25,499 bases of DNA from a virus (IMGVR_UViG_2778261277_000016:1-25499); one strand, 5' to 3'. Shown: positions 2,868 through 17,059, counted from the stretch's first letter. Notes: generated from the letters alone by a model not told the origin. A program made the numbers and translations.

Positions 2868-4052
2868 ATGAGTGAAACTCGTTTTCATGGTGCCCGTGTC
2901 ACGGAAAGTACCGACCTGGTAACAGCGATTAATGATGTTGATTCCAGCGTTATCGGTATCGTGGCAACGGCGGATGATGCGGACGCGAAGCTGTTCCCGC
3001 TGAACAAGCCCACACTGCTGACCCGCGTCAATGACGTGCTGGGAAAATGCGGAACAACGGGGACGCTTTATCGTGCGCTTAAGGCCATCGCAGACCAGGT
3101 GAGCACAAAGGTGATCGTCGTTCGCGTGGCTGAACACAAAGAAGAAGACGGAAAGACGCAGGATCAACTGGTTATCGGTGGTTCTGAGGATGACGGCAGC
3201 TATACGGGGATGTATGCGCTGCTTGTTGCAGAGCAGGATGAAAGCATCGGATACCGTCCGCGTATTCTGGCCGCGCCGGAGCTGGACACGGAGGCGGTAA
3301 CAAAATCCCTGTGCGTGATTGCGGGTAAACTGCGCGCGTTTGTGTATGCCACATGTCATGGTTGTAACACGATGGCTGAGGCGATTGCCTACCGCCAGAA
3401 ATTCAACGAACGTGAGGTGATGCTCTTATGGCCTGACTTCATCGCCTACAACCCGAAAAGTGGCAAAAACGAAACGTTCCCCGCGCCTGCCTATGCGTGC
3501 GGCCTTCGTGCGTACATTGACCATGAGCAGGGCTGGCACAAATCATTGTCCAACGTTCCGGTTAAAAATGTGCTGGGGATGTCGAGGCATGTGTTCTGGT
3601 CGTTGCAGGCCGAAGACAGCGATGCCAACAGCCTCAACAACAAAGAAATCACGACCATTATTCGTCGCAACGGGTTCCGCTTCTGGGGCAACCGCACACC
3701 GGAAACGAACGCCTACATCTTTGAGGTGTATACCCGAACCGCACAGGTGCTGGCTGATTCAATTGCGGAAGCGCAGTTTGAAACCATCGACAGTCCACTG
3801 ACGCCTGCGAACGTGAAGGATGTTATCAGTGCCATCAGGGCAAAACTGGATTCACTGGTTACTGCCGGGAAACTGATTGGCGCGGAGTGCTGGTATGACG
3901 TGGTGGATAACAGCACCACGGATTTACGTCAGGGGCGTGTGCGTATTCGCTACAAATATACGCCCGTTCCGCCACTGGAAGACATGGAGCTTTACCAGAC
4001 GTTTACTGATGAATTCTTTGGTCCCGCATTTGCGGTGCTGGGAGGTGCCTGA
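2868..4052 (+). CDS. FI: Tail sheath protein (P2 gpFI family)
   Basis: 394 aa, close to P2 FI size as I recall it; AAGGGG RBS; followed by the tube gene with a TGATG overlap. Confidence 0.9.
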   Translation: MSETRFHGARVTESTDLVTAINDVDSSVIGIVATADDADAKLFPLNKPTLLTRVNDVLGKCGTTGTLYRALKAIADQVSTKVIVVRVAEHKEEDGKTQDQLVIGGSEDDGSYTGMYALLVAEQDESIGYRPRILAAPELDTEAVTKSLCVIAGKLRAFVYATCHGCNTMAEAIAYRQKFNEREVMLLWPDFIAYNPKSGKNETFPAPAYACGLRAYIDHEQGWHKSLSNVPVKNVLGMSRHVFWSLQAEDSDANSLNNKEITTIIRRNGFRFWGNRTPETNAYIFEVYTRTAQVLADSIAEAQFETIDSPLTPANVKDVISAIRAKLDSLVTAGKLIGAECWYDVVDNSTTDLRQGRVRIRYKYTPVPPLEDMELYQTFTDEFFGPAFAVLGGA

Positions 4053-4564
4053 TGGCTGTACCAAAACATCTTCGCTTTTTTACGCTGTTTGTGGATGGTG
4101 AAAACGAAGTGGGTAAGGTGACGTCCGTCACTCTGCCTAAGCTGACGCGCAAAACCGACAGCTACCGGGGTGGTGGCATGATGGGTGCGGTAAGTATTGA
4201 TCTCGGTCTGGACGACTCCGCGCTTGATGCGAGCTTTGTCATGGGGGGCGCAGTTCGTGAGCTGTTCCTTAAGTATGGCGGCACGATTGACGGCACGCTG
4301 CTGCGTTTTGCGGGTGAATACTACACCGATGCAGAAAGCGACCTGTATGAAGTCGAAATGCGCGGACGTGTGACGGAAATTGATATGGGGGAAGCCAAAC
4401 AGGGCGAAGCCACATCACACACTTACGCCATTAAAAACACCTACTACAAGCTGAGTGTTAACGATCGCCCGTTGTGGGAGATTGACCTGCTGAACTTCAT
4501 CTACCGGAAGGACGGCAAGGACATTGTGCCTGACCGTATCCGTTCCGCGCTTGGGCTTGGCTGA
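4052..4564 (+). CDS. FII: Tail tube protein (P2 gpFII family)
   Basis: 170 aa; GGAGGTG RBS; canonical position between sheath and the E/E' chaperone. Confidence 0.9.
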   Translation: MAVPKHLRFFTLFVDGENEVGKVTSVTLPKLTRKTDSYRGGGMMGAVSIDLGLDDSALDASFVMGGAVRELFLKYGGTIDGTLLRFAGEYYTDAESDLYEVEMRGRVTEIDMGEAKQGEATSHTYAIKNTYYKLSVNDRPLWEIDLLNFIYRKDGKDIVPDRIRSALGLG

Positions 4565-4618
4565 TAAGTAATATGCAGGCGGCGCAGTGCGTCGCCTCTG
4601 ACTGAAAGGAGTTTCCTG

Positions 4619-4984
4619 ATGAAAGAGACGAAAAACATCGATACCGAAAACACGGTAGTTACTGACACTGTGAAAGAAACCAGTGAGCGTGGCGTAAAAC
4701 TTACCCAACCAATTGAGCGAGGTGGCGAAAAAATCACGTATGTGGAGATCACCGGGGCTATTGAGCAGGCTGGATCTCTGCGAGATTTGTCGCTGTCTGA
4801 TGTGCTGAATCTGAAAGCGGAATCCATGTTTACGCTGCTGTCACGCGTGACATCACCGCGACTGGATGAAGTGACGATCAAAAAAATGGCATCCCGTGAC
4901 TTTATTCAGTTATGTGTGGTTGCCGTAAATTTTTTGAGCGGTGCGGACTCTGGCGGGAAGAACGAACAGGCGACGGAAGCCTGA
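4619..4984 (+). CDS. E: Tail assembly chaperone E (frame-0 product)
   Basis: 121-aa ORF with AAGGAG RBS directly upstream of the tape-measure gene; contains the slippery heptamer near its 3' end. Confidence 0.8.
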   Translation: MKETKNIDTENTVVTDTVKETSERGVKLTQPIERGGEKITYVEITGAIEQAGSLRDLSLSDVLNLKAESMFTLLSRVTSPRLDEVTIKKMASRDFIQLCVVAVNFLSGADSGGKNEQATEA

Positions 4985-5148
4985 TCACGGTTGTGTGCTT
5001 TGAGCACATAGAAGACTTTGTGGCGGATATTGCCGCCATTTTTAACTGGTCGCCCGCCGAAATCTTCATGATGACGCCCGGCGAAGTGGTTAGCTGGCGT
5101 GAGCGGGCGGCACTTCGCAGCGGGAATGCAGACAATGAAGACTCTTGA
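4619..5148 (+). CDS. E+E' fusion chaperone made by programmed -1 frameshift
   Basis: The -1 frame ORF (4912-5148) continues from the slippery T-TTT-TTG at 4930-4936. Frame arithmetic checked: E codons start at 4931 and 4934, the E' frame reads from 4930. This is the conserved P2 E/E' (lambda G/GT-like) arrangement. Confidence 0.6.
4930..4936 (+). other. Slippery heptamer TTTTTTG for the -1 ribosomal frameshift
   Basis: AAATTTTTTGAG at the point where the E frame and the -1 E' frame overlap. Confidence 0.6.
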
Positions 5149-7942
5149 TATCCGGGTCGCTTTCAGCGCCGTTGACAGGCTGACCCGGCCTGCCGAAAAC
5201 GCCCGCCGCCTGATGGGGCAGTTTGGTGACTCCATCCAGCGAACGCAGGGGGCGATCAAAAATCTCGAGCGTCAGGCGCGATCATTTGAGCGCGCCCGTG
5301 ACGCTGTCAGTAAAGCGGATGCGGGCATCGTGAAAGCACGACGCCAGCTTAACGCCCTTAATCAGTTACAACGCACGGGTACAGTGCTCAGCGAAAAACA
5401 ACAAAAGCTGATGCAGCAGTTAAGCACCCGGCTTGAACGCCTGAATGAATCGCGCACACGGGAAATTCAGAAAATGCGGGAGCTTGGCGGAGAGCTGAAA
5501 CGCCACGGCATTTCCCTGACAGGCAGCGATAACACCATCCAGCAGGCCATCAGACGCACCGAACAGTACAACAACCAGCTTGAACGCGAACGGCAGGCGC
5601 TTGCGCGTGTAACACGGGCGCGTGAGCGGTATTCGCGCGCGCAGGAAACAGCGGGAAAACTGAAAACAGGTGGTGCGCTGGCAATTGGTGCGGCAGCGGC
5701 GGGCGGCTATGCTGCCGGGCGTTTTTTGCAGCCTGCGATCGGGTTCGGCAAAGAGATGTCCCGCGTTCAGGCACTGACGCGAATCGACCAGAACAGCCCG
5801 CAGTTTAAGGCGCTGCGTGAGCAGGCGTTAAAACTTGGCTCTGAAACGCAGTTCACCGCAGGCGATGCCGCCAGTGGACAGGCATTTCTTGCAATGGCTG
5901 GCTTTACACCACAGGCCATTCAGGCTGCGCTCCCTGGCGTACTGAGCATGGCAACGGCTGGCGGTATGGACCTCGGTGAGACGGCGGATATTGGCTCAAA
6001 TATTCTGACGCAGTTCGGTCTTTCTGCTGACCAGATGGACCGGGTCGGCGACACACTCACCGCAGCGTTTACCCGTACCAACACTGACCTTCGCGCACTG
6101 GGTGAAACCATGAAATATGCAGGTCCGGTGGCGGGTAAGCTGGGAATATCGCTGGAGCAGGCCGCAGCGATGGCGGGCGTGCTGGCGAATATGGGTATCA
6201 GGGGGAGTGATGCTGGTACGGCAATGCGTGCCAGCCTGGCTCGTCTGGCATCACCGCCAAAGGCGGCAGCAGAGGCGCTGAAAGAGCTTGGCGTGTCTGT
6301 CTCGGATGCCGGGGGCAAAATGCGCCCGATGGAGGATGTGCTGGCTGACCTTTATAAAGCTACCCGCAAATACGGGGAAGTTGACCGGGTATCGTTCTTT
6401 AAGGACATTGCCGGAGAAGAGGCTTTCACATCATTTATGGCCCTCGTTGATGCGGCAGGTGACGGCTCCTTACCCAAACTGAGAAAAGAACTTGAAGGCG
6501 CGCGCGGTGAGGCTGAACGCACGGCAAAGGTTATGGCCAACAACCTTGACGGCGATCTGAAATCACTCAGCAGTGCATGGGAAGGGTTGCGCATCCGCAT
6601 TGCAGATCTGATTGACGGTCCGCTGCGTTCTGTCACGCAGTGGCTCACGCGTGTGGTATCAAAGGTGACGGCGCTGGCGCAGGCCCATCCCGCACTGACG
6701 CGCCAGCTACTGATTGCAGGCGGTGCACTGCTGGCAATGACTGCAACGGTTGGCTCGTTGTCGCTGGCTATTGGTGTGCTTGCTGGCCCGCTGGCAAAAC
6801 TGCGTCTTGGTTTTTCCCTCCTGACCGGATCAATGAATGCTGTCAGGGTTCTGCCAGCACTATGGGGAATGGTGACGGGTTCCGTTTCTTTACTGGGAGG
6901 CGCTATCGGGGCGTTGTTCAGTCCGGTTGGTCTTATCGTGGCTGCGCTTGCCGGAGCTGCCGTTCTTATCTGGAAATACTGGGATCCCATCAGGGCATTT
7001 TTTGCCTGGGTGTTCAGCGGGATTATGGAAAGGCTGACCCCGTTGCGCGAAACCTTTGAACGGTTTGGTCCTGTTTTTGACGCAATCGGGAGTGGGATCA
7101 GCCAGGTGTTTAACTGGTTTAAATCGCTGCTGTCACCGATGGAGTCCAGCAAGGAAACTCTGGATAAATGTACCAGTGCTGGCGAGATATTCGGTAACGT
7201 TCTTGGCGGTGCGTTACAACTTGTTCTGACACCTGCAAAAATGTTGCTGGATACGCTGGCGTGGATACTTGAAAAGCTTGGTGTGCTTCCGGATGAAGCG
7301 GAAAGGGCGCGCAAGAAAATCGAAGACGCACAGCGTGCGGCCATTCTTCAGGACAAGGTTGCCTTGCTTCAGGGGGACCTGGCGAAAATCAATCCGCCGA
7401 AGCCTGTGGAAAATGGCAATGGCACCGGAGGTGATAACCCCAAAGACAATAAACCGCTCACAGACAGCAATACCGGTACGCTGCGCAGACTCAGCAAAAT
7501 TGCTGATAACACAGGTAAGCTGGTTGAGGAGACGAAAAAACGCATTGGCCCCGGCGATATTGTCTTTAAAAACCTGCCCCGAGCACTTGCTGTTCGTGGG
7601 GAGTGGCAGGAGCGGAAGATTGCGCAGGTCAGTAAGCCTGCCCCCGCAATTAATATCACACCCGTGGTCCCGGCTCCGCTGCCTCCGGCGCTGGTCCCTG
7701 TTGTTGCGGCCAGCTCCCGCCCGGTGGCGGAGGCTATACGATCTCCAGTGGCATCAGTTCCTGTAACTTCCCGTAACCGGGAGCCTGTTGCCTCCGGATT
7801 TGGTGGTGAAATTCATGTTCATCTGCATAACGTTGTTACGCAGAATCCCCGCGAACTGGCGAAACTGGTCGGTGAAATGGTCAGGGCAGAAATGGAACGG
7901 CGCGCCCGTGCCGGGCGTGGCAGTTTTTACGATAAAGATTGA
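5126..7942 (+). CDS. T: Tail tape measure protein (P2 gpT family)
   Basis: Very long ORF (about 940 aa) with an N-terminal coiled-coil-like region, central Gly/Ala-rich hydrophobic segments and a Pro/Val-rich C-terminus, directly after E/E'. Start is uncertain: GTG 5099, ATG 5126 or ATG 5135. Confidence 0.85.
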   Translation: MQTMKTLDIRVAFSAVDRLTRPAENARRLMGQFGDSIQRTQGAIKNLERQARSFERARDAVSKADAGIVKARRQLNALNQLQRTGTVLSEKQQKLMQQLSTRLERLNESRTREIQKMRELGGELKRHGISLTGSDNTIQQAIRRTEQYNNQLERERQALARVTRARERYSRAQETAGKLKTGGALAIGAAAAGGYAAGRFLQPAIGFGKEMSRVQALTRIDQNSPQFKALREQALKLGSETQFTAGDAASGQAFLAMAGFTPQAIQAALPGVLSMATAGGMDLGETADIGSNILTQFGLSADQMDRVGDTLTAAFTRTNTDLRALGETMKYAGPVAGKLGISLEQAAAMAGVLANMGIRGSDAGTAMRASLARLASPPKAAAEALKELGVSVSDAGGKMRPMEDVLADLYKATRKYGEVDRVSFFKDIAGEEAFTSFMALVDAAGDGSLPKLRKELEGARGEAERTAKVMANNLDGDLKSLSSAWEGLRIRIADLIDGPLRSVTQWLTRVVSKVTALAQAHPALTRQLLIAGGALLAMTATVGSLSLAIGVLAGPLAKLRLGFSLLTGSMNAVRVLPALWGMVTGSVSLLGGAIGALFSPVGLIVAALAGAAVLIWKYWDPIRAFFAWVFSGIMERLTPLRETFERFGPVFDAIGSGISQVFNWFKSLLSPMESSKETLDKCTSAGEIFGNVLGGALQLVLTPAKMLLDTLAWILEKLGVLPDEAERARKKIEDAQRAAILQDKVALLQGDLAKINPPKPVENGNGTGGDNPKDNKPLTDSNTGTLRRLSKIADNTGKLVEETKKRIGPGDIVFKNLPRALAVRGEWQERKIAQVSKPAPAINITPVVPAPLPPALVPVVAASSRPVAEAIRSPVASVPVTSRNREPVASGFGGEIHVHLHNVVTQNPRELAKLVGEMVRAEMERRARAGRGSFYDKD

Positions 7943-7948
7943 GGAGTC

Positions 7949-8443
7949 ATGGCCATGATGATGATCTACGGCATGTTTGTTTTTGAGCTGCGCACGCTGC
8001 CGCATCAGCAGTTACAGCAAAACAAAAGCTGGCGGCATGTGAAAAATGAACGCGTTAACCGTTCAGCAAGCTGGCAGTATATCGGTGCAGGTGATGATCG
8101 CATCGTTCTTTCTGGTGTGCTTTATCCTGAAATTACAGGTGGCGAAGTGTCGCTGTCGCTGCTGACCACGCAGGCGTATACAGGACGACCCTGGCCTTTG
8201 ATTGATGGTGTCGGGCAGATTTACGGCATGTATGTCCTGACCGGAACGAATACGACCCGCTCCGAGTTTGATCGCTACGGTAAGGCGAAAAAGATAGAAT
8301 TTTCACTGACTCTTGAACGCTGTGATGAGGATTTGCGGGAGCGCCTGCAATCCTCATCGTTCAGTGATATGCTGTCCGGCTTCAAAGATAAGGTCACATC
8401 ATCCCTTAACAGCGCGGCCAGCTCCGTTAACGGGCTGTTTTGA
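7949..8443 (+). CDS. U: Tail protein U (P2 gpU family)
   Basis: 164 aa; motifs such as MYVLTGTN...KIEFSLTLERCDE resemble P2 gpU from memory. True start may be the ATG at 7955, which has better spacing from the GAGGAG RBS. Confidence 0.85.
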   Translation: MAMMMIYGMFVFELRTLPHQQLQQNKSWRHVKNERVNRSASWQYIGAGDDRIVLSGVLYPEITGGEVSLSLLTTQAYTGRPWPLIDGVGQIYGMYVLTGTNTTRSEFDRYGKAKKIEFSLTLERCDEDLRERLQSSSFSDMLSGFKDKVTSSLNSAASSVNGLF

Positions 8444-8450
8444 TTAACGC

Positions 8451-8488
8451 AAAACCGCTAATGGTCAGATTAGCGGTTTTCATTTTCC
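8451..8488. terminator. Bidirectional hairpin terminator between U and the invertase fragment
   Basis: Perfect 12-bp inverted repeat AAAACCGCTAAT(8451-8462)/ATTAGCGGTTTT(8469-8480) with a 6-nt loop, followed by CATTTTCC on +. Sits between convergent genes. Confidence 0.5.
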
Positions 8489-8775
8489 TGAGTCTGCCTG
8501 GTTGTTTCTTCAGCCTGTATATCGCCTACAGGGTGATAACGATAAATCGTCGATATGCCGATGTCGTAAATGATCGCCAGTTGTTTCCTGTCATGACCGT
8601 TTTTAATCAGCCTCGCTATTTGTTCGTGTTGTTCTTTTGTCAACTTCGGGCGACGTCCGCCAATGCGTCCTTGTGCGCGTGCTGCTGCCAGCCCGGCCAG
8701 TGTACGCTCTACAATTAATTCATGTTCCATTTCGGCTAAAGCTCCCATGACGTGAAAAAAGAAACGCCCCATGGG
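8470..8775 (-). pseudogene. Truncated serine-invertase paralog (C-terminal half only)
   Basis: Translation PMGRFFFHVMGALAEMEHELIVERTLAGLAAARAQGRIGGRRPKLTKEQHEQIARLIKNGHDRKQLAIIYDIGISTIYRYHP matches the C-terminal half of the adjacent invertase with a handful of substitutions. DNA similarity stops near 8775; the catalytic N-terminus is absent and there is no convincing RBS. Confidence 0.6.
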
Positions 8776-8860
8776 TGTTGATTGATGCGCCGCGCGATAA
8801 ACGTACCTATTTCCGTGAGATAAATTACATCGCCGCGGCATTTCAATATCAGAAAAAGAA

Positions 8861-9433
8861 TTACAAATCAGCTTGAGTTTGAAGTTCCTCTACAGGGTGA
8901 TAACGATAAATCGTCGATATACCGATATCGTAAATAATTGCCAACTGTTTCCTGCTATAGCCATTTTTGATCAGCCTTGCTATTTGTTCATGTTGCTCTT
9001 TTGTCAGTTTCGGACGACGTCCACCAATACGCCCCTGTGCACGTGCTGCTTCAAGTCCGGCCAGTGTTCGTTCAACTATTAATTCACGCTCCATTTCCGC
9101 TAAAGCCCCCATGACGTGAAAAAAGAAACGTCCCATGGGTGTTGACGTATCAATGCTGTCTGTAAGACTACGGAAGTTAACCCCTTTTTCCCGCAGTTCC
9201 TCAATAAGAGTGATGAGGTGTTTCATGCTTCTGCCCAGCCTGTCCAGCTTCCAGACAACGAGCGTATCTCCTTCTGATAACGTTCTGAGCAGCTTTTTCA
9301 ATCCCGGTCGGGCTGACTTTGTTCCGCTGATTTTATCCTCAAAAATCAGTTCACATCCTGCGCAGTTCAGTGCGTTTCGTTGTAAATCTGTATTCTGGTC
9401 ATTTGTTGACACACGAATGTAGCCAATTTGCAT
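8861..9433 (-). CDS. Serine DNA invertase, Gin/Hin/Pin/Cin/Min family
   Basis: Starts MQIGYIRVSTNDQNTDLQRNAL, the canonical N-terminus of this family with the catalytic Ser in RVST. Also has TLVVWKLDRLGRS, SLTDSIDTS and a C-terminal HTH (GISTIYRYHP). AAAGAGGA RBS 8 nt before the ATG. The ORF track's upstream extension to 9628 is rejected. Confidence 0.9.
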   Translation of the reverse strand: MQIGYIRVSTNDQNTDLQRNALNCAGCELIFEDKISGTKSARPGLKKLLRTLSEGDTLVVWKLDRLGRSMKHLITLIEELREKGVNFRSLTDSIDTSTPMGRFFFHVMGALAEMERELIVERTLAGLEAARAQGRIGGRRPKLTKEQHEQIARLIKNGYSRKQLAIIYDIGISTIYRYHPVEELQTQADL

Positions 9434-9487
9434 GAAAAATATCCTCTTTGTTTTGTTAAAAATACATAGCTGGTATAGGTGGGAGTT

Positions 9488-9513
9488 AAGACGAAAACGT
9501 TGGTTTGGGGGAA
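9488..9513. repeat. Candidate 26-bp invertase crossover site (cassette 1)
   Basis: AAGACGAAAACG-TT-GGTTTGGGGGAA. Right half-site is identical in all five sites; overall shape resembles hixL TTCTTGAAAACC-AA-GGTTTTTGATAA from memory. Confidence 0.5.
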
Positions 9514-9936
9514 GGCTCAGCGCTGCCCGTTGGTGTGCCCGTTCCGTGGCCCTCAGCCACACCGCCAGCAGGGTGGCTGAAATGTAACGGCGCAGCATTT
9601 TCTTCTGAAATGTACCCCAATCTGGCAAAGGCTTATCCTACAAATAAATTACCGGATTTACGGGGTGAGTTTATTCGCGGCTGGGATGACGGGCGGGGAA
9701 TTGATTCAGGACGCACTCTACTTTCGTTACAGGGCGATATGTTTAAATCGCACAGTCATTACTTCCGTGAAATATGGGGTGCAAATGGACCAGATGGAAC
9801 TGGTGGACCGTACATTGTCGGGGCGGATACAAACGGTTCGAGAATAAATTTAGGCACTATAGAAACCAGTGCACCTGGTGGTTCAGAAACCCGTCCCCGT
9901 AACATTGCATTTAATTACATCGTAAGAGCGGCATAG
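9505..9936 (+). CDS. Silent tail-fibre C-terminal cassette 1 (tail-collar-like domain, HxH-containing); promoterless gene segment
   Basis: No ATG or RBS (the ORF track begins at TTG inside the crossover site). Conserved N-part GEGSALPVGVPVPWPSATPP.GWLKCNGAAFSSEMYP.LAKAYPTNKLPDLRGEFIRGWDDGRGID, variable middle, conserved end RPRNIAFNYIVRAA; the same ends occur in the expressed H gene. Confidence 0.75.
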   Translation: MGEGSALPVGVPVPWPSATPPAGWLKCNGAAFSSEMYPNLAKAYPTNKLPDLRGEFIRGWDDGRGIDSGRTLLSLQGDMFKSHSHYFREIWGANGPDGTGGPYIVGADTNGSRINLGTIETSAPGGSETRPRNIAFNYIVRAA

Positions 9937-9955
9937 AAACGTTGGTTTGGGGGAA
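9930..9955. repeat. Candidate crossover site (cassette 2)
   Basis: GGCATAGAAACG-TT-GGTTTGGGGGAA; the left half-site contains the stop codon of cassette 1. Confidence 0.5.
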
Positions 9956-10414
9956 GGCTCGGCGCTGCCCGTTGGTGTGCCTGTTCCGTGGCCCTCAGCC
10001 ACACCACCAACGGGCTGGCTGAAATGTAACGGTGCAGCATTTTCTTCTGAAATGTATCCCAAACTGGCAAAAGCTTACCCCACCAATAAATTACCGGATT
10101 TACGGGGTGAATTTATTCGTGGCTGGGATGATGGGCGGGGAATTGATAATAGACGCAACCTACTGTCTGCACAGTCTGACACTATTCAGAATATAGTTGG
10201 CACTTTTGGACGAACTCAGCTTTTTAAAGATGCTTTAAATTCAGGGCCATTTAGTCAAACTGACTCTATATTATCAGTAGGCTTGCAACCAACTGAGAAT
10301 ATTGAAGGATATGGCGCCTCTGTATGGACATTCGACGCCTCTCGCTCAGTTCGCACAGCATCTGAAACACGTCCTCGTAACATTGCGTTTAATTACATCG
10401 TAAGGGCGGCATAG
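9947..10414 (+). CDS. Silent tail-fibre C-terminal cassette 2 (no HxH, AT-rich variable core)
   Basis: Same conserved ends as cassette 1; variable core NRRNLLSAQSDTIQNIVGTF... is unrelated to cassettes 1 and 4; in a different reading frame from cassette 1. Confidence 0.75.
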   Translation: MGEGSALPVGVPVPWPSATPPTGWLKCNGAAFSSEMYPKLAKAYPTNKLPDLRGEFIRGWDDGRGIDNRRNLLSAQSDTIQNIVGTFGRTQLFKDALNSGPFSQTDSILSVGLQPTENIEGYGASVWTFDASRSVRTASETRPRNIAFNYIVRAA

Positions 10415-10433
10415 AAACGTTGGTTTGGGGGAA
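10408..10433. repeat. Candidate crossover site (cassette 3)
   Basis: GGCATAGAAACG-TT-GGTTTGGGGGAA, identical to the cassette 2 and 4 sites. Confidence 0.5.
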
Positions 10434-10886
10434 GGCTCTGCACTACCTGTTGGTGTGCCTGTTCCATGGCCGTCAGCCACACCGCCAACAGGGTGGCTGA
10501 AATGTAACGGTGCAGCATTTTCTTCTGAAATGTACCCCAATCTGGCAAAGGCTTACCCCACGAATAAATTACCGGATTTACGGGGCGAATTTATCCGTGG
10601 CTGGGATGACGGACGAGGTATTGATGCAGGACGAGAGATACTTTCATTTCAGGAAGGCACTATCGTCTCCGGTTTTGATGATAATGATACTGGGGATATC
10701 AGTTCACTTAGCTCAACACAATACGGATTTGGTGACACTCTAACCTCTAATCAATGGGGGGCCATAAATGGCAAAAAGTGGATATTTGATGCATCCAGTA
10801 AAGGTGCACAAAAATATGACTGGCGGGCTTATGTATCAGCTCGTCCGCGTAATATTGCATTTAATTACATCGTAAGAGCGGCATAG
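10425..10886 (+). CDS. Silent tail-fibre C-terminal cassette 3 (no HxH)
   Basis: Same conserved ends; unique variable core AGREILSFQEGTIVSGFDDNDTGD... Confidence 0.75.
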   Translation: MGEGSALPVGVPVPWPSATPPTGWLKCNGAAFSSEMYPNLAKAYPTNKLPDLRGEFIRGWDDGRGIDAGREILSFQEGTIVSGFDDNDTGDISSLSSTQYGFGDTLTSNQWGAINGKKWIFDASSKGAQKYDWRAYVSARPRNIAFNYIVRAA

Positions 10887-10905
10887 AAACGTTGGTTTGG
10901 GGGAA
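10880..10905. repeat. Candidate crossover site (cassette 4)
   Basis: GGCATAGAAACG-TT-GGTTTGGGGGAA. Confidence 0.5.
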
Positions 10906-11400
10906 GGCTCTGCACTACCCGTTGGTGTGCCTGTTCCGTGGCCCTCAGCCACACCGCCAACAGGGTGGCTGAAATGTAACGGCGCAGCATTTTCTTCTGA
11001 AATGTACCCCAAACTGGCAAAGGCTTACCCCACCAATAAATTACCGGATTTACGGGGTGAGTTTATTCGTGGCTGGGATGATGGGCGGGGAATTGATTCA
11101 GGGCGTTCCTTGCTTAATGCACAATCACATTCGGTTATAGATCATATTCATTATATGGAGTTATGGACTGGTGAAGGGCTTGCCGCAAACAACACCCGTG
11201 CAGGAACAAACCCTGGTATACTGGCTACATACGGTGATGGCGGGATTGTTAAAACAGATGAGTCAGGTGTAAAAGTTCCATCTTCACTACGTGCTATTGG
11301 CACTCGTGGTGTTTATAGATTAGGTGCCAACGGAGGGAATACAGGAACGGAAAACCGCCCCCGTAATATTGCGTTTAACTATATTGTAAGGGCTACTTAA
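10897..11400 (+). CDS. Silent tail-fibre C-terminal cassette 4 (HxH-containing), coupled to the downstream tail-fibre assembly gene
   Basis: Same conserved ends; variable core contains HIHYMELW; its stop overlaps the next gene's start as TAATG (11398-11402). Confidence 0.75.
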   Translation: MGEGSALPVGVPVPWPSATPPTGWLKCNGAAFSSEMYPKLAKAYPTNKLPDLRGEFIRGWDDGRGIDSGRSLLNAQSHSVIDHIHYMELWTGEGLAANNTRAGTNPGILATYGDGGIVKTDESGVKVPSSLRAIGTRGVYRLGANGGNTGTENRPRNIAFNYIVRAT

Positions 11401-12017
11401 TGAATAATGCTGCTGCAGTACTTGATCAGAATGGTATCGCTATAACTGCAGGCGATATTACCGTTTATAACTACGATGCTGAAAACCGTGAATATCTCTC
11501 TGCCACTGTTGAGTATCTCGCTTATGGTGTTGGAATTCCGGCTCACTCATGCATTGACGCGCCACCAGAAAAACGCCCCGGCTTCGCTGTCTGTCGTGAT
11601 ACCGACCAGAACATCTGGAAATATGTTCCAGACCACAGAGGCGAAACGGTTTACAGCACAGAGAATGGTAACGCTGTGCAAATCACACAACCGGGAGATT
11701 ACCCTCCTGATACGACGGTGAAACAGCCAGCTACTATCTATGATGTCTGGGATGGTGAGATTTGGGTGACAGATACGAGACGACAGCACGCAGCAGAACT
11801 GGAAGCTGCCGGAGCGCATCGTCAGCAACTTGAGGAACAGGCAATGGCATCTGTTGAGCTTATTAATCTCAAACTACGAGCCGGACGCCGATTGACGCCC
11901 CAGGAGACGGAAAAACTAAACGCCGTGCTTGATTTCATAGATACGCTTAATGCGACTGACATCAGCACTGCACCGGATATCAACTGGCCGGAAATGCCTC
12001 TGGCAGCAGCCAGTTGA
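11400..12017 (+). CDS. Tail fibre assembly protein (Tfa family; P2 gpG / Mu U analogue)
   Basis: 205 aa; translationally coupled to cassette 4 with an AAGGG RBS; family assignment is from memory of Tfa-like proteins (short conserved N-terminus, Asp/Pro-rich regions, coiled-coil segment) and from its position beside the fibre cassettes. Confidence 0.75.
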   Translation: MNNAAAVLDQNGIAITAGDITVYNYDAENREYLSATVEYLAYGVGIPAHSCIDAPPEKRPGFAVCRDTDQNIWKYVPDHRGETVYSTENGNAVQITQPGDYPPDTTVKQPATIYDVWDGEIWVTDTRRQHAAELEAAGAHRQQLEEQAMASVELINLKLRAGRRLTPQETEKLNAVLDFIDTLNATDISTAPDINWPEMPLAAAS

Positions 12018-12023
12018 GTATAA

Positions 12024-13541
12024 TTAAGCCGCCCTCACGATATAGTTAAATGCGATATTGCGGGGGCGAGTTTCACTACCACCAGTGTTACCAATACTCC
12101 CTCGTGAATGAAGTGTCGGTGATGGGATCAGACTCCCGCCTGTACTTGTGGCATCAAGTCCCCGTCCTTGTGTATATGTTTTTTTGAAAATTGTGGCCAA
12201 CTCCCATTCATCCTTTGTGTCATACCCATCGTTAGCTACAACAATATGGCGGTGTTTTTCCAGCATCCCAGTTTGAAAGCTTAATAAAGCACGTCCTGCA
12301 TCAATCCCTCGCCCGTCATCCCAGCCACGAATAAACTCGCCCCGTAAATCCGGTAATTTATTGGTGGGGTAAGCCTTTGCCAGTTTGGGGTACATTTCAG
12401 AAGAAAATGCTGCACCGTTACATTTCAGCCACCCTGTTGGCGGTGTGGCTGAGGGCCACGGAACAGGCACACCAACGGGTAGTGCAGAGCCTTCCCCCAA
12501 ACCAAGGTATGCGAGAAGACCAGCTACATCCTTTCCACTCAAATTGGTAAGCGTATTGTCCAGCGGTTGTTTACCTGCCAGCGCACTAAGCATTGTCGTG
12601 GCAAAGTTCGGATCATTCCCCAGTGCCGCAGCCAGTTCGTTCAGCGTGTTCAGTGCATCAGGTGACGAATCTACAAGTGCGGCAATCGCGGCCATAACGA
12701 AAGCCGTGCTTGCGATCTGGGTACTATTAGTCCCCTGTGGCGCTGTTGGTGTTGTTGGCATTCCGGTCAGTGCCGGGCTGTTTAATGGTGCTTTCTTGCT
12801 CGTTTCATCCATTACCGCCTTAACAGCTTTTGGTGTCGCTGCCAGCGTTTCAGACGTGCTGTTCGTGGCGCTACTGAGCTGAACAATCCCTTTTTGTGTT
12901 GTGGTGGCGTTCTGGGCGGTATATTTCCCGTCAGCCAGGTCATATGCAGCCTTAACTGCTTTCGGTGTTGCGGCCAGTGTTTCTGATTCACTGTTAATTG
13001 CACTGCTTAACTGAGTAAAACCTTTTGCGGTCAGCGAGGCGTCCGGGTGACGTCGTGACTGTTCGTGCTCTGAGATTTTATCATCCACATATTTGCGGGT
13101 TGCCAGAACCACCGACGGGTCGATTTTCAGCGTGATGGCTTCGGTATTCGTGACAACCAGAATCATGCGGATAGTCTGGGTGCGTCCACTGCCTTCCTGC
13201 AACTGCGGTTTGTACGTTTCCGGGCAGTTTGCCACCGCAATGAGTACACCTTCATCATCATAAAGACCAATCTCACGGATCCAGAATCCTCCCTCGTTTT
13301 CAGGGATGATTTGCTCCGCAATAATCTGGCTCTGATTGTTAGGGTCAACACTCAGAAGATTCAGCGGTGCAATGCGTTTCTGGTTAATCAGTTTTGTTTG
13401 TGCAGGGTCTGGTGTTGGTAACACACCATTTGCATCACCAACGGCCATTTGCGTCAGATTCAGCTTACTGCCGAGCATCGTCGCGTTAGCCAGTCGTGCT
13501 GCGCCCTGATTAGTCAGAATGGCGTAGTATTTCACTGTCAT
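12024..13541 (-). CDS. H: Tail fibre protein H, currently expressed variant (P2 gpH-like N-terminus fused to a tail-collar-type C-terminal cassette)
   Basis: N-terminal portion through EHEQSRRHPDASLTAKGFTQLSSA...ETLAATPKAVKA matches P2 gpH from memory. The C-terminal 155 aa begin ...LGLGEGSALPVGVPVPWPSATPPTGWLKCNG and end RPRNIAFNYIVRAA, the same frame as the silent cassettes on the opposite strand. Confidence 0.9.
   Translation of the reverse strand: MTVKYYAILTNQGAARLANATMLGSKLNLTQMAVGDANGVLPTPDPAQTKLINQKRIAPLNLLSVDPNNQSQIIAEQIIPENEGGFWIREIGLYDDEGVLIAVANCPETYKPQLQEGSGRTQTIRMILVVTNTEAITLKIDPSVVLATRKYVDDKISEHEQSRRHPDASLTAKGFTQLSSAINSESETLAATPKAVKAAYDLADGKYTAQNATTTQKGIVQLSSATNSTSETLAATPKAVKAVMDETSKKAPLNSPALTGMPTTPTAPQGTNSTQIASTAFVMAAIAALVDSSPDALNTLNELAAALGNDPNFATTMLSALAGKQPLDNTLTNLSGKDVAGLLAYLGLGEGSALPVGVPVPWPSATPPTGWLKCNGAAFSSEMYPKLAKAYPTNKLPDLRGEFIRGWDDGRGIDAGRALLSFQTGMLEKHRHIVVANDGYDTKDEWELATIFKKTYTQGRGLDATSTGGSLIPSPTLHSRGSIGNTGGSETRPRNIAFNYIVRAA
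12492..12517. repeat. Candidate crossover site inside H (constant/variable junction), inverted relative to the cassette sites
   Basis: + strand reads TTCCCCCAAACC-AA-GGTATGCGAGAA, i.e. on the - strand TTCTCGCATACC-TT-GGTTTGGGGGAA. Homology with the cassettes begins exactly at the TT core, inside the CTT codon of ...AYLGLGEGS. Confidence 0.55.
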
Positions 13542-14146
13542 GCGTTTACTCTCAGATTATCAATTAAATGAATGGCCGGGGCAGGGAAATAATCCCCTTC
13601 GACAATAATGGACTCCGGGGTGTAGGGATAAACCGTCAGGGCATCGCCGTGATAGCATCCCGTACCAACGAAAATCTTTCCGTTCACACTCAGGCTGATC
13701 GCCAGCCCCGTCAGATGGCGACTTACTGGTTTTGCATCCGCAATAAGGCGCTCAAGTTCCTGATACATTTCATCGGTGATGCCCTGATCAAGTACTCCGA
13801 CAACAATGCGAAATGTTCCTGGCTCCTCGTTGAGTTGCCACCACTCCTTTACTTCAATCAGGTAGCCGAGAGGCTCCACGGCTCTTCGCAGTGCGCTGAT
13901 GGTCCCTTTGTGTCGGTGTATCAGCCATGCATCACGAATTACCTGTCGCTTTGTCTCTTCCGGCCAGTTGCGATCCCAGCGGTCAACGGAAAACGCCCAG
14001 GCGAAATAAGGCAGCAGATGCACCGGGCAGGTGTCCGGCGACCACAGCGTGTTGAGGTCTACCGGGATGTCTGTAATGCGCGTTCCGACAGCTTCGGCAT
14101 AACGCATGAAATTGCTGGCTGATGGCGGTAACAGTGAATTACTCAT
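13538..14146 (-). CDS. I: Baseplate/tail protein I (P2 gpI family)
   Basis: Position between J and H; start set at MSNSLLPP (ATG 14144-14146), which overlaps the J stop; the ORF track extends to 14200. Confidence 0.8.
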   Translation of the reverse strand: MSNSLLPPSASNFMRYAEAVGTRITDIPVDLNTLWSPDTCPVHLLPYFAWAFSVDRWDRNWPEETKRQVIRDAWLIHRHKGTISALRRAVEPLGYLIEVKEWWQLNEEPGTFRIVVGVLDQGITDEMYQELERLIADAKPVSRHLTGLAISLSVNGKIFVGTGCYHGDALTVYPYTPESIIVEGDYFPAPAIHLIDNLRVNA

Positions 14147-15035
14147 TACGCCCACCTTCGCTGATGGTGAATGACTCACAGCGCGCCGCCTGTATGTCAC
14201 TGATGGCCATATTCTGTGTGGGTTCGATTATCTCCACGCGTTGCACGCCGTGTACATGAAGTGCGGCAGCAATGGCGGACAACGCCACGTCCTGACCGAT
14301 AAGCCCCTGTTCAGCCAGCCACTTCCTGAATGACGATTCCGCCGCGGCCAGAATAGGTTCGGATTCCGGACCGGGGTAAAAGTACAGTTTTGCATTCAGC
14401 CGCCATGTCACGATGCTGGCGCTCTGTACGGTCAGGCGGTCGGCCACCGGGCGGGTATCCTCTGCATTCAGAACGGCGCGAACGGTATTAAGCAACGCCT
14501 CCGTTGCTGTGCCGTCGCCCTCAGTGGACAGTATGGAAACCGTCACGTTGGCCGGAGACGGGCTGATGGCTCGCGCGTCGCGTACCAGACCGCTGGCGCT
14601 GCGTGCAAAATACTCGTATGCGCCTGACGGGCCAGCAACACTCAGACCGTCATACGCCCGTTGCGCCCGCAGTCTCAGCGAGGTGTCGCTTTCCATCACC
14701 GCGTCGGTGGTATCCGTTGCCGGAGTGATAACCAGGCGCTTTGTGTTCATATTACCCGCGAGGTTGTCCAGGTCTGTCCCGGCGCTGTGGCTTAACATGC
14801 AGGCGCGTGCACCCTCATTGACCCGCTGGCGTAACAGCATTTCACGAAACGCTGTTGTCTGGGCGATAACGTTCAGAGGTTCCGATTCCAGCTCCAGCGC
14901 AGCGGAGACGGCTTCACGCTGTTCGGCGGGATAAGCCGCAATCATCATGGCCTTTGTGTCAGCCAGAATTGCCTCAAAGTCAGGCTCCGCGATGATGGCG
15001 GGTTCCGGTAACTGGGAAAGGTCAACGGCGGGCAT
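14139..15035 (-). CDS. J: Baseplate assembly protein J (P2 gpJ family)
   Basis: 298 aa; canonical W-J-I-H order. Confidence 0.85.
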   Translation of the reverse strand: MPAVDLSQLPEPAIIAEPDFEAILADTKAMMIAAYPAEQREAVSAALELESEPLNVIAQTTAFREMLLRQRVNEGARACMLSHSAGTDLDNLAGNMNTKRLVITPATDTTDAVMESDTSLRLRAQRAYDGLSVAGPSGAYEYFARSASGLVRDARAISPSPANVTVSILSTEGDGTATEALLNTVRAVLNAEDTRPVADRLTVQSASIVTWRLNAKLYFYPGPESEPILAAAESSFRKWLAEQGLIGQDVALSAIAAALHVHGVQRVEIIEPTQNMAISDIQAARCESFTISEGGRNE

Positions 15036-15038
15036 GAT

Positions 15039-15389
15039 TTACTCCCTCAGCGTGATGGTTAATTCAACATTCTGCATGGTCTGCATGACAGTGCCCGACA
15101 GCGTCACCCCGGCGCGGCCTCCCGCTTTCCAGACAACATCGATGGCGTCCAGGGCAATGCGGGGTTCCCATCGTGTCAGCGCAATCACGGCAGCACTCAT
15201 GCATTGCAGACGCGTGGTGTTATTCATGGGTTCGTCAATCAAATCAGGCACAAGGCTGCCATATTCCCGTCGCATAACCCGGCTTGCCAGCGGGGTGGTC
15301 AGGATGTCCCTGACTGACTGTTTCAGGTGCTCCATATCGTTCAGGTTTCCCGTCCCGTCCGGGTTCATTCCTGTGTAGCGGGTTGTCAC
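15039..15389 (-). CDS. W: Baseplate wedge protein W (P2 gpW, T4 gp25-like)
   Basis: 116 aa; position and size fit. Confidence 0.85.
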   Translation of the reverse strand: MTTRYTGMNPDGTGNLNDMEHLKQSVRDILTTPLASRVMRREYGSLVPDLIDEPMNNTTRLQCMSAAVIALTRWEPRIALDAIDVVWKAGGRAGVTLSGTVMQTMQNVELTITLRE

Positions 15390-15967
15390 TGCGGGCCTCC
15401 TGTCGAATCGCTGCCACCTTTAACGCCACCGTGCTTATGCGTATGCACTGTGATGCCGTTTGAGGTGAAGTCGCCGCCGCTGTGCGTGATATTGCCGCTC
15501 ATCTTTCCCCCTTTTGTGACGTCAAGCGTCGCCGTTCTCAGAAGGTTTGTGCATTCCACGACAGGCGTGTCCAGTTTCACGCTGACGGATGCCTGTAAAG
15601 TGGCCGTTTTCATGCCGCTGGCGCTCAGTGCGCCTGCGTCCGCGTCGTAGCGGAACACCGCGCCGTCCGGCGCGCTGATCACGATTTCTTTCAGGCTTTT
15701 GCCGGGGGCCGGACTGGCATCACTCCACAGGCTGCCAATTATCATGGCGGTTTCCGGGTTGCCGCCAATGCAGGCAATTACCACCTGTTCGCCTGGTGAT
15801 GGCGGCAGCCACACATTGAAGGCTCCCGCGCGCGTGGTGTTCCAGCGCAGCCAGCCTGTTTCCAGTTCGCCGCTGCGAACGCGCACGCGCCAGGACTTCT
15901 CATCAACTTCAGAGATGATCCCGGTGCGGATGATATTGCTCAGCAGTCGCATGAGTTCTGCGCTCAC
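15386..15967 (-). CDS. V: Baseplate spike/assembly protein V (P2 gpV family)
   Basis: 193 aa with a Gly-rich C-terminus; ATGA-type overlaps with both neighbours. Confidence 0.85.
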   Translation of the reverse strand: MSAELMRLLSNIIRTGIISEVDEKSWRVRVRSGELETGWLRWNTTRAGAFNVWLPPSPGEQVVIACIGGNPETAMIIGSLWSDASPAPGKSLKEIVISAPDGAVFRYDADAGALSASGMKTATLQASVSVKLDTPVVECTNLLRTATLDVTKGGKMSGNITHSGGDFTSNGITVHTHKHGGVKGGSDSTGGPQ

Positions 15968-16608
15968 CGTACAGCCTCCGCAATCCGGCCCAGCACCGTG
16001 TTATAAATCAGGCGCTCATCTGCCTGGCTGATACCCAGCAGCTCACGTACCGGGTAATCGGTGAAAATGCCCGGCGCAACCTGATCGCGCTCACCGAACT
16101 GATGAACGCGGGCAATACGTGCGGCCACGCCGCTGTAACCCACCGTCACACCGGAAGCATCTGCACGGGCTTTCAGGTAGCGGGCGGTGCGCAGTTTTAC
16201 GAACATGGGGACGCGCTTTGTGCTGTCCTGGTTGATGCGCCGGGTGCGTATTTCCAGAAAACGGTCGATGTCATCCCGGTAAAACGTGCGGATATTGTTT
16301 TTATCCTCATCCCACCCGGTAATGGTTCGCCCGTATTTCCCCGTGTCGTGACGCCAGTTTTTCAGCGTGCGTGCTTCGTTATTCCAGATAAAGCGAATGC
16401 GTTCCTGTATCCGGGTTACGCGGCGTCTGCGTGGTGTCCACGCGGTCCCGTCCGGCGCTTTCTGTGACCGGATACGCGCCTGCTGGGCGCGGCGTAAATC
16501 CTGTGCCAGCTTTCTGGCGATGTTATTGATGGCCTGCTGATTCAGGCTGTCGCGGATGGCCTCAAAGGTTTCATCCACGCGGGTGAATGCCTTATCCATC
16601 GCTTTCAC
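15964..16608 (-). CDS. S: Tail completion / virion morphogenesis protein S (P2 gpS family)
   Basis: Position between R and V. The ORF is longer than P2 gpS as I remember it, so the start is uncertain. Confidence 0.7.
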   Translation of the reverse strand: MKAMDKAFTRVDETFEAIRDSLNQQAINNIARKLAQDLRRAQQARIRSQKAPDGTAWTPRRRRVTRIQERIRFIWNNEARTLKNWRHDTGKYGRTITGWDEDKNNIRTFYRDDIDRFLEIRTRRINQDSTKRVPMFVKLRTARYLKARADASGVTVGYSGVAARIARVHQFGERDQVAPGIFTDYPVRELLGISQADERLIYNTVLGRIAEAVR

Positions 16609-17059
16609 CCCACGTCACATCCTGGAATACATGCGACCAGTCGCCTTCGGAAGATGGCAGGCGGGGTTTTGGCTCCGGCAGGTGTTCTGCCTGCGGTGTG
16701 CCCTGACTGCTGCGCGTGATGCGAACGCGTTCCCGCAGGGGGAGCGTAAACAGGAGATCGGCGCTGTCATCGTCATTGATAACGGCGGAGAATTTGATGT
16801 CCTGATTACGCTCCGGATTGAGCAACAACTGTGGCTGATTTTCGGATAACCACGCCAGCAGCGGCAGCGTGAGGTCGTCCAGCTCCCCGGCGTAATCCAT
16901 GACAAACATCACCATCTGATAGAGGTAAACAAACGATGGGGTTTCTCCGGTCGTTTCAATGTTGCCGCTCTCCACGAAAATGGTGAATTTTTCCGGGTTG
17001 GCCTGACACCATCGGCATGAACGGGTCATGGCTTCACGCAGGGAATCAGTTTTCAGCAT
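16592..17059 (-). CDS. R: Tail completion protein R (P2 gpR family)
   Basis: 155 aa; N-terminus MLKTDSLREA resembles P2 gpR (MLKPDSLRRA) from memory. Confidence 0.75.
   Translation of the reverse strand: MLKTDSLREAMTRSCRWCQANPEKFTIFVESGNIETTGETPSFVYLYQMVMFVMDYAGELDDLTLPLLAWLSENQPQLLLNPERNQDIKFSAVINDDDSADLLFTLPLRERVRITRSSQGTPQAEHLPEPKPRLPSSEGDWSHVFQDVTWGESDG

Follow-up and report, generated by a model that had tools for sequence, protein, structure and literature searches.

The 25,499-nucleotide stretch IMGVR_UViG_2778261277_000016:1-25499 (hereafter the window) carries a tail-fibre gene, H, next to four further fibre tips without promoters, a DNA invertase and a single tail-fibre assembly gene (tfa), and thereby raises the question of whether the tips are exchanged on H by DNA inversion and, if so, by which recombinase. 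The evidence given below leaves us highly confident that the locus is a Min-type multiple DNA-inversion switch of the tail-fibre tip, housed in a P2-family prophage of Escherichia coli, and the system is active in nature. Its features are listed here, with coordinates counted from the first nucleotide of the window (ORF, open reading frame; HTH, helix-turn-helix).

8470-8781, - strand: non-functional remnant (3′ fragment) of a second, resident invertase gene; its profile matches are confined to Resolvase positions 104-144 and HTH_7, and it is without a catalytic domain
8861-9433, - strand: complete Gin/Pin/Min-type serine DNA invertase of 190 aa (Resolvase E=1.6e-51, with HTH_7)
9299-9433, - strand: probable recombinational enhancer (sis-like, Fis-dependent) in invertase codons 1-45
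9488-9513, + strand: crossover site 1, the invertase-side boundary; its left flank is joined to cas2, cas3, cas4 or tip5 in other isomers
9502-9936 (ORF 9505-9936), + strand: tip cassette 1 (cas1), silent, collar domain E=4e-15
9930-9955, + strand: crossover site 2, overlapping the cas1 stop codon
9944-10414 (ORF 9947-10414), + strand: tip cassette 2 (cas2), silent, collar domain
10408-10433, + strand: crossover site 3 (26 bp)
10422-10886 (ORF 10425-10886), + strand: tip cassette 3 (cas3), silent, collar domain
10880-10905, + strand: crossover site 4 (26 bp)
10894-11400 (ORF 10897-11400), + strand: tip cassette 4 (cas4), silent, collar domain; its stop codon overlaps the tfa ATG
11400-12017, + strand: tfa, tail-fibre assembly (chaperone) gene, single, inside the invertible DNA (Caudo_TAP E=9e-26, phrog_105 E=5.5e-83)
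12024-13541, - strand: tail-fibre gene H (505 aa), convergent with tfa and lying six bases past it
12024-12503, - strand: tip 5 (tip5), currently fused to H and expressed; the 3′ part of the H ORF, and a silent cassette in other isomers
12492-12517, - strand: crossover site in H, with its core in codon 346; the H tail is joined to cas1, cas3 and cas4 in other isomers, and to cas2 at the protein level
12506-13541, - strand: constant N-terminal part of H, residues 1-346 (Phage_tail_fib E=2e-62, with Phage_fiber_2 repeats), 100% identical across isomers

In the mechanism that we propose, the adjacent 190-aa Gin-like invertase would recombine any two oppositely oriented sites of the five, and an inversion using the H site would join the constant 346-codon part of H in frame to another tip. 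Of the five DNA ends that start at a site, four open with the common collar block of ~67 codons, and an end of this kind is here called a head. Each of cas1, cas2 and cas3 would move as a simple unit running from a head to a tail, and the fourth movable unit (cas4 -> tfa -> <- tip5) would be composite and bear a head on both sides. Through successive inversions these four units would change in order and orientation, giving 48 isomers with five alternative tips, and a population of lysogens would then release virions of differing receptor specificity, a form of host-range bet-hedging.

Fusion proteins and natural isomers

The fusions expected from such inversions, H residues 1-347 followed by each of the cassettes, were looked up as exact sequences among E. 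coli proteins, and all four exist letter for letter, as the original prediction of in-frame H::cassette fusion had implied. H::cas1 is an exact 490-aa protein found on 11 contigs, H::cas2 an exact 502-aa protein on 5 contigs, H::cas3 the 500-aa protein WP_097294312.1 and H::cas4 the 514-aa protein WP_096246428.1, on 3 contigs each. The form of H present in the window, with tip5, is likewise an exact full-length E. coli protein (4 contigs), bringing the isoforms of H that share an identical 347-residue N-terminus and exist as exact database proteins to five.

The DNA that encodes these fusions and H led to 15 loci of the same prophage (markers 99-100% identical), 14 of them complete five-tip loci, and among these 14 a total of 12 distinct arrangements was observed. 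All 12 follow one rule, in which the constant part of H is followed by zero or more co-oriented simple cassettes, the composite unit in either orientation, the remaining cassettes in reverse and finally the invertase. A breadth-first search that permitted only inversions between oppositely oriented sites reaches exactly 48 arrangements, and these include 12/12 of those observed, at 0-5 inversions from the window state; the isomers other than the window state thus need 1-5 successive inversions, which bears out the further prediction that cassette order is reshuffled by successive events. Contigs of the same length, 229,792 bp, from three sister assemblies (GCA_050597105, GCA_050597555 and GCA_050597615) have flanks with 0 mismatches (7,036 nt and ~3,430 nt) and three different arrangements, and four other loci (L008, L011, L013 and L016) show 0 flank mismatches to the window, yet differ in cassette order.

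One more locus of the same prophage, with an identical H (L006, GCA_021417545.1; locus 8656-9189), has only four tips, and one of its cassettes, of 177 aa, is missing from the window, which shows that even close relatives differ by gain and loss of cassettes.

Crossover sites and tip blocks

The 16-mer TTGGTTTGGGGGAAGG is present in exactly five copies, on the + strand at 9500, 9942, 10420 and 10892 and on the - strand at 12490-12505, compared with 0.17 copies in shuffled sequences, and on re-inspection H therefore does share the recombinogenic site of the cassettes. The full 26-bp sites read AAGACGAAAACG-TT-GGTTTGGGGGAA at cassette 1, on the invertase side, GGCATAGAAACG-TT-GGTTTGGGGGAA at cassettes 2-4 and TTCTCGCATACC-TT-GGTTTGGGGGAA in H. 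The right half-site GGTTTGGGGGAA is invariant in all five, the left half in H resembles its reverse complement, and the core dinucleotide, read from tail to head, is TT in 5/5 sites. The five sites resemble gix of Mu, which was read from the Mu genome as TTATCCAAAACC-TC-GGTTTACAGGAA, and are closer to AAACCTTGGTTTGGGAGAA, which Goldberg et al. list for the inverted repeats of e14 and of the Mu-like prophage of enteropathogenic E. coli (EPEC-Mu) (PMC4272514) and which matches the right half-site at 11/12 positions with the same TT core. The number of sites and the inverted orientation of the one in H agree with the prediction, but their placement does not: each lies where H-only sequence meets the start of the ~220-nt shared block, and not at the border between shared block and variable core. 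As the core TT falls within H codon 346, the exchange preserves the reading frame (...YLG joined to LGEGSALP...).

The four + strand cassettes, which are promoterless, and the 3′ 480 nt of H have in common a 5′ block of 209-229 nt (91-96% identity, forming inverted repeats with respect to H) and a 3′ block of ~52 nt, slightly longer than the ~45 bp first estimated, while the variable cores of 62-86 codons (60-90 in the earlier estimate) do not align with each other. The 3′ block also provides the left half of the next site, with the stop codon TAG inside GGCATAGAAACG, as well as the likely ribosome-binding site of tfa. Among PDB entries, the tips match the receptor-binding tips of T4 gp37 (2XGF, E=1.7e-17) and T4 gp12 as well as a ‘short tail fiber’ (9CUY), and since the N-terminal collar and the NIAFNYIVR strand at the C terminus are both covered by these alignments, the two conserved blocks are two parts of one collar domain. 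By these alignments, the collar consists of the N-terminal ~67 residues and the C-terminal strand RPRNIAFNYIVRAA, with the variable core of 62-86 residues inserted between them; this insert would be the receptor-binding part, and the tips would bind different receptors.

The invertase and the neighbouring fragment

The complete invertase has the characters of the Gin/Hin/Cin/Pin/Min enzymes, namely a length of ~190 aa, an N-terminal catalytic domain and a C-terminal HTH, and it carries the nucleophile Ser9 within the motif RVSTNDQ. It is 75% identical to Mu Gin, with which it aligns end-to-end (PDB 3UJ3/4M6F, E=1e-90); to the invertase encoded on a P1-like phage-plasmid its identity is 93%. 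That the enzyme is active is suggested by its intact motifs and by isomers that diverged recently and have this gene in common (inv marker 100%), and it would be the acting recombinase of the array.

A complete Gin/Hin-family gene beside the array was thus rightly called, except that the interval claimed from 8470 onward takes in, at 8470-8841, the invertase 3′ fragment, which is 84% identical to 8872-9145. Window positions 7901-8782 are collinear with the prophage of EPEC strain E2348/69 at 97.5%, and the complete invertase gene with its 80-nt downstream flank is collinear with P1-like plasmids (~88%). Judged from this collinearity, 8470-8860 has the make-up of a recombination scar, in which the 3′ fragment of the resident invertase is followed by a complete, P1-plasmid-like one. 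A sister lineage (L003-L005) has a single hybrid invertase of 199 aa and no fragment.

Where the invertase has the same amino acid as Mu gin, the codons are identical at 25/36 positions in codons 1-45 but at 33/94 beyond codon 45 (Fisher p=7e-4), and this higher synonymous-site conservation, as indirect evidence, fits a DNA element that overlaps the 5′ coding region. The Fis-dependent enhancers of gin and hin sit in the 5′ part of the invertase gene, and a Fis-dependent enhancer probably operates in codons 1-45 here as well; a scan with the Fis-site consensus gave a single 15-mer shared by the invertase gene and gin (G-N13-C, centred at nt 78). Between the invertase start and site 1, at 9449-9466, lies the dyad TGTTTTGTTAAAAATACA (TGT-N12-ACA), where the promoter or operator of the invertase would be expected. 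As a P2 late promoter reading into the array this dyad was rejected as uninformative: the window has 4 copies of TGT-N12-ACA where chance alone would give 6, and no copy stands where a late promoter should be.

Weighing the inversion switch against other explanations

Several observations weigh against an inversion switch driven by the adjacent enzyme. The isomers are read across separate assemblies, the window itself being one arrangement, and most isomer loci come from short-read assemblies, in which mis-assembly of the internal order is conceivable for mixed populations; cas4 and tip5 share an exact run of 91 nt, and the cassette tails are near-identical. A different four-tip locus, that of E. 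coli 8178, shows no arrangement variation across three complete assemblies, and the exact sequence of the 190-aa invertase was not found in the protein collection searched. Since tfa is inverted together with cas4 and tip5, 24/48 isomers, the window’s included, have it antisense to the H operon; no promoter was found for it, with no sigma-70-like site upstream and no room for an intergenic one, and some isomers may not give infectious virions. Finally, a related host invertase elsewhere could act in trans.

On this last reading, the host would supply a further Gin-family invertase, such as e14 Pin or the enzyme of another prophage, to drive the switching, and the adjacent gene would be inactive or redundant; we consider it unlikely. 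Gin, Cin, Pin and Hin cross-complement each other, the head block is present in 1400/5426 complete E. coli genomes, on chromosomes and plasmids and often at several places per genome, and the fragment of a second invertase adjoins the invertase gene, with the scar on its 3′ side. However, the adjacent gene is full length, has all its motifs and retains its close similarity to Gin; the sister lineage with the hybrid 199-aa invertase shuffles its tips, as do the loci with the 190-aa type; and nearly every array in viral contigs retains one adjacent invertase.

An exchange by RecA-dependent homologous recombination between the 220-bp repeats would require no invertase at all, and the repeats, at 91-96% identity, are long and similar enough for an occasional homologous inversion. 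The position of the exchanges makes this very improbable. The five heads differ pairwise at 17-32 positions within 230 nt, with longest exact runs of 26-91 nt, and the first difference from the core is met at +19 (cas1 or cas2 vs the others), +28 (cas3) or +91 (cas4 vs tip5). In all of the ~60 junctions, the 40 nt that precede the TT core have been swapped, whereas no 230-nt head has parted from the variable core to which it belongs (0-1 mismatch); this bounds the exchange to -1 through +19, +28 or +91 of the TT core, depending on the tip pair. Random crossovers in a 220-bp block with 17-32 differences would often part the early single-nucleotide differences from the core, but no crossover elsewhere in the shared block, and no mosaic head, was seen in ~60 junctions. 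Exchanges that all fall within 20-90 nt containing the 26-bp site are the signature of an invertase and not of RecA.

It is hardly credible that the isomers only reflect repeats wrongly joined by short-read assembly. Near-identity extends over up to ~90 nt of cassette tail, site and initial head sequence and could mislead an assembler, but the junctions to the unique H tail or to the invertase flank share only 19-28 nt with their alternatives for cas1-3, so that assembly chimeras are implausible for H::cas1, H::cas2 and H::cas3; moreover, many independent assemblies agree, and the homologous locus of E2348/69 was confirmed by polymerase chain reaction (PCR). That the cassettes are static duplicates, decayed copies of a fibre tip past recombining, can be dismissed at the level of the lineage: the single arrangement in the window and the four tandem direct cassettes could come from duplication, but the variable cores are mutually unrelated and hence not duplicates, the sites and frames are intact, and the four exact fusion proteins and the 12 arrangements of one prophage, some with identical flanks, refute it.

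A single tfa for five tips

The presence of a single tfa inside the invertible DNA had been omitted from the original prediction. Across the arrays sampled, the families of tip cores are not tied to the tfa-adjacent position, and the N-terminal domain of Tfa has been described as its fibre-binding part (PMC9608196), both of which make a generalist Tfa acting on the shared collar plausible. One Tfa would then serve all tips; alternatively, there may be isomers in which assembly is OFF, or tips that are independent of Tfa. Tfa itself gave no significant sequence match in the PDB. Read-through from the convergent FI-FII-E-T-U operon was considered as a source of tfa transcripts and judged unlikely, as a strong bidirectional terminator lies at 8451-8480.

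We hold it possible, though doubtful, that the array is more than a five-way selector, in that either half of the isomers are assembly-OFF states, amounting to a second, hidden layer of phase variation, or a generalist Tfa, which would recognise the collar common to all tips in arrays with as many as eight of them, is expressed from an undescribed internal promoter that works in both orientations. If true, either outcome would change the understanding of Tfa specificity and expression in invertible fibre loci, and one tfa for many tips poses a testable question on both.

Relation to known inversion systems

The original prediction knew of no such architecture in a P2-like phage; this does not hold, since a homologous multi-inversion locus was described in 2014 for the P2-like prophage of EPEC E2348/69, in which ‘three homologous inverted repeats’ yield four coexisting variants with three alternative C-termini, as demonstrated by PCR and sequencing (Goldberg 2014, PMC4272514). 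The inversions were placed in the supplementary data of that study at 1891695-1893703 and 1892127-1893703 (PMC4272514), with which the sites that we mapped in the same genome, at 1891695, 1892134 and 1893696, coincide. This prophage is also the best complete-genome match of the window, with 93.5% identity over 66% of the query and three copies of the site. The two loci have in common the TTGGTTTGGGGGAAGG site, the context of H, tfa, invertase and gpU, and the composite unit tip -> tfa -> <- tip, but the E2348/69 locus differs in its number of sites (three, not five), tips (three, not five) and isomers (four, not 48), and it has one 199-aa invertase without an invertase fragment. No description of a five-tip array in the P2 family was found in the open-access literature.

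A ‘shufflon’ with three C-terminal fibre isoforms, adjacent to gin, has been reported for the Enterobacter phage FRphi, with quantification of the isoforms by long reads in prophage and virions (Nat Microbiol 2026, PMC13418256). In that study, locked variants differ in infectivity and one isoform only infected the test host, a gin-deleted strain was sequenced beside the wild type (Methods), and the repressor genes were identified through homology to lambda cI and cII (PMC13418256). Going by this description, the FRphi locus and ours are both gin-adjacent and multi-tip, with three tips in FRphi. DNA invertases beside swapped fibre and tfa genes have also been reported for the P2-like hotspot that encodes Z/fun.

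The comparison with Min of plasmid p15B, drawn in the original prediction, is strengthened by P1-like IncY plasmids and Punavirus phage-plasmids, which carry the same invertase-and-cassette module at 85-89% identity. Min and the P1-like (IncY/Punavirus) arrays resemble the present locus in having one Gin-family invertase, many sites, a constant 5′ part of the fibre gene and many 3′ tips, but the P1-like arrays serve a P1 S-type fibre of ~950 aa, whereas the tips here follow a P2 H-type shaft of 346 residues on a chromosomal prophage. The defining trait of a Min-type system, more than two sites per invertase with overlapping invertible segments, is found here with five sites and one complete invertase. 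For n simple cassettes, the isomers number n! x (n+1) x 2, that is 48 for five sites and 240 for six, and 240 isomers are known for Min of p15B.

With Mu G/Gin, P1 C/Cin and e14 P/Pin, the locus shares the enzyme family, the 26-bp sites with a 2-bp core, the constant part with invertible tips and the probable enhancer in the invertase gene; those are two-site, two-state systems in which each tip has its own tfa (Mu U and U′), unlike the five sites, 48 states and single tfa found here. The R64 shufflon likewise has a constant gene part and several invertible C-terminal segments that are permuted through successive inversions. It uses the tyrosine recombinase Rci, acting at sfx sites in the pilus adhesin gene pilV, while the present locus has a serine recombinase and a phage fibre gene and is no shufflon of the R64 type; given the serine recombinase, the term ‘shufflon’ applies by analogy only.

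A scan of IMG/VR for the exact site yielded 116 loci, in which heads were counted by tblastn. These arrays hold 1-8 tips; an array of 5 tips is found at nine loci, one of 6 at five loci, and arrays of 7 and of 8 at two loci each. The cores in the sample fall into ~31 families with the common C-terminus RPRNIAFNYIVRAA. Multi-tip arrays on contigs of sufficient length have one invertase and a single tfa (two in one array), and tfa, where seen, is inside a tip -> tfa -> <- tip unit. On the IncY plasmid NZ_LR890206.1 of Klebsiella pneumoniae (L136), eight tips stand behind a 949-aa S-type fibre. This array and the IMG/VR loci L121, L080, L124 and L076 each have seven or eight tips with at most one invertase and at most one tfa in the sequenced stretch, with no tfa within the contig in the case of L124; by the same rule, eight tips would give 10,080 isomers. 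The four-tip locus of E. coli 8178 (L137-L139) lies next to yehR, apparently in a truncated prophage, and combines an invertase of 190 aa with a fibre gene of 317 aa.

Location and prophage context

The host element of the array is a P2-family (Peduoviridae) prophage of E. coli. The window is matched at 100% identity over 13,518 nt by an E. coli contig (L007, GCA_002225765.1), and the P2-type gene set is present, with Pfam matches to Phage_cap_P2, GPO, terminase, portal, sheath, tube FII, GpU, Tail_P2_I and GPD; identical loci also list L, X, R, S, V, W and J in their gene tables, and a zinc-finger ORF like Ogr matches a transcription-regulator PHROG. The surrounding features, assigned by Pfam/PHROG except where stated, are as follows.

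332-592, - strand: Ogr-like regulator
742-1431, - strand: ORF of 229 aa with a hydrophobic N-terminal segment, flanked by gpD and ogr
1602-2732, - strand: gpD
2868-7942, + strand: sheath FI, tube FII and tape measure
7949-8443, + strand: gpU
8451-8480, no strand: bidirectional hairpin resembling an intrinsic terminator, between gpU and the invertase fragment, with a perfect 12-bp stem (AAAACCGCTAAT/ATTAGCGGTTTT) flanked by an A-run and a T-run
13538-14200, - strand: gpI
beyond gpI, - strand: baseplate J, W and V, then S and R (Pfam/PHROG and identical loci)
further along the window: capsid N, scaffold O, terminase P and portal Q

From gpU to gpI the order is hairpin, invertase fragment, complete invertase, four cassettes, tfa and the convergent H. 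The FI-FII-E-T-U operon (2868-8443, + strand) is convergent with the V-W-J-I-H operon (12024-17059, - strand), and the invertible region lies in the middle. The hairpin speaks against transcription of the FI-U operon continuing into the array, and from its sequence it looks like an element that insulates the switch from the tail operon. The genes gpD and ogr are on the opposite strand to FI-U, with an identical layout in the E2348/69 prophage, and the FI-U block is inverted relative to the P2 map. Searches of Pfam, PHROGs and PADLOC gave no match for the 229-aa ORF at 742-1431, which is possibly a cargo or moron gene.

Significance

The locus is a five-tip, 48-isomer member of the known Gin/Min-type family of multiple-inversion fibre systems and involves no new principle, the mechanism being the textbook biology of Gin, Cin, Pin and Min. 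What it adds is that 12/48 isomers of one prophage can be read from public assemblies, which means that routine assemblies freeze arbitrary states of such loci, and that variants annotated as ‘phage tail protein’ may represent a single gene in its several isoforms. With 2-8 tips per array, the family is both large and modular, and it is shared by P2-like prophages and P1-like plasmids, which makes it relevant for the prediction of host range and for the engineering of phages or tailocins with switchable receptor-binding domains.

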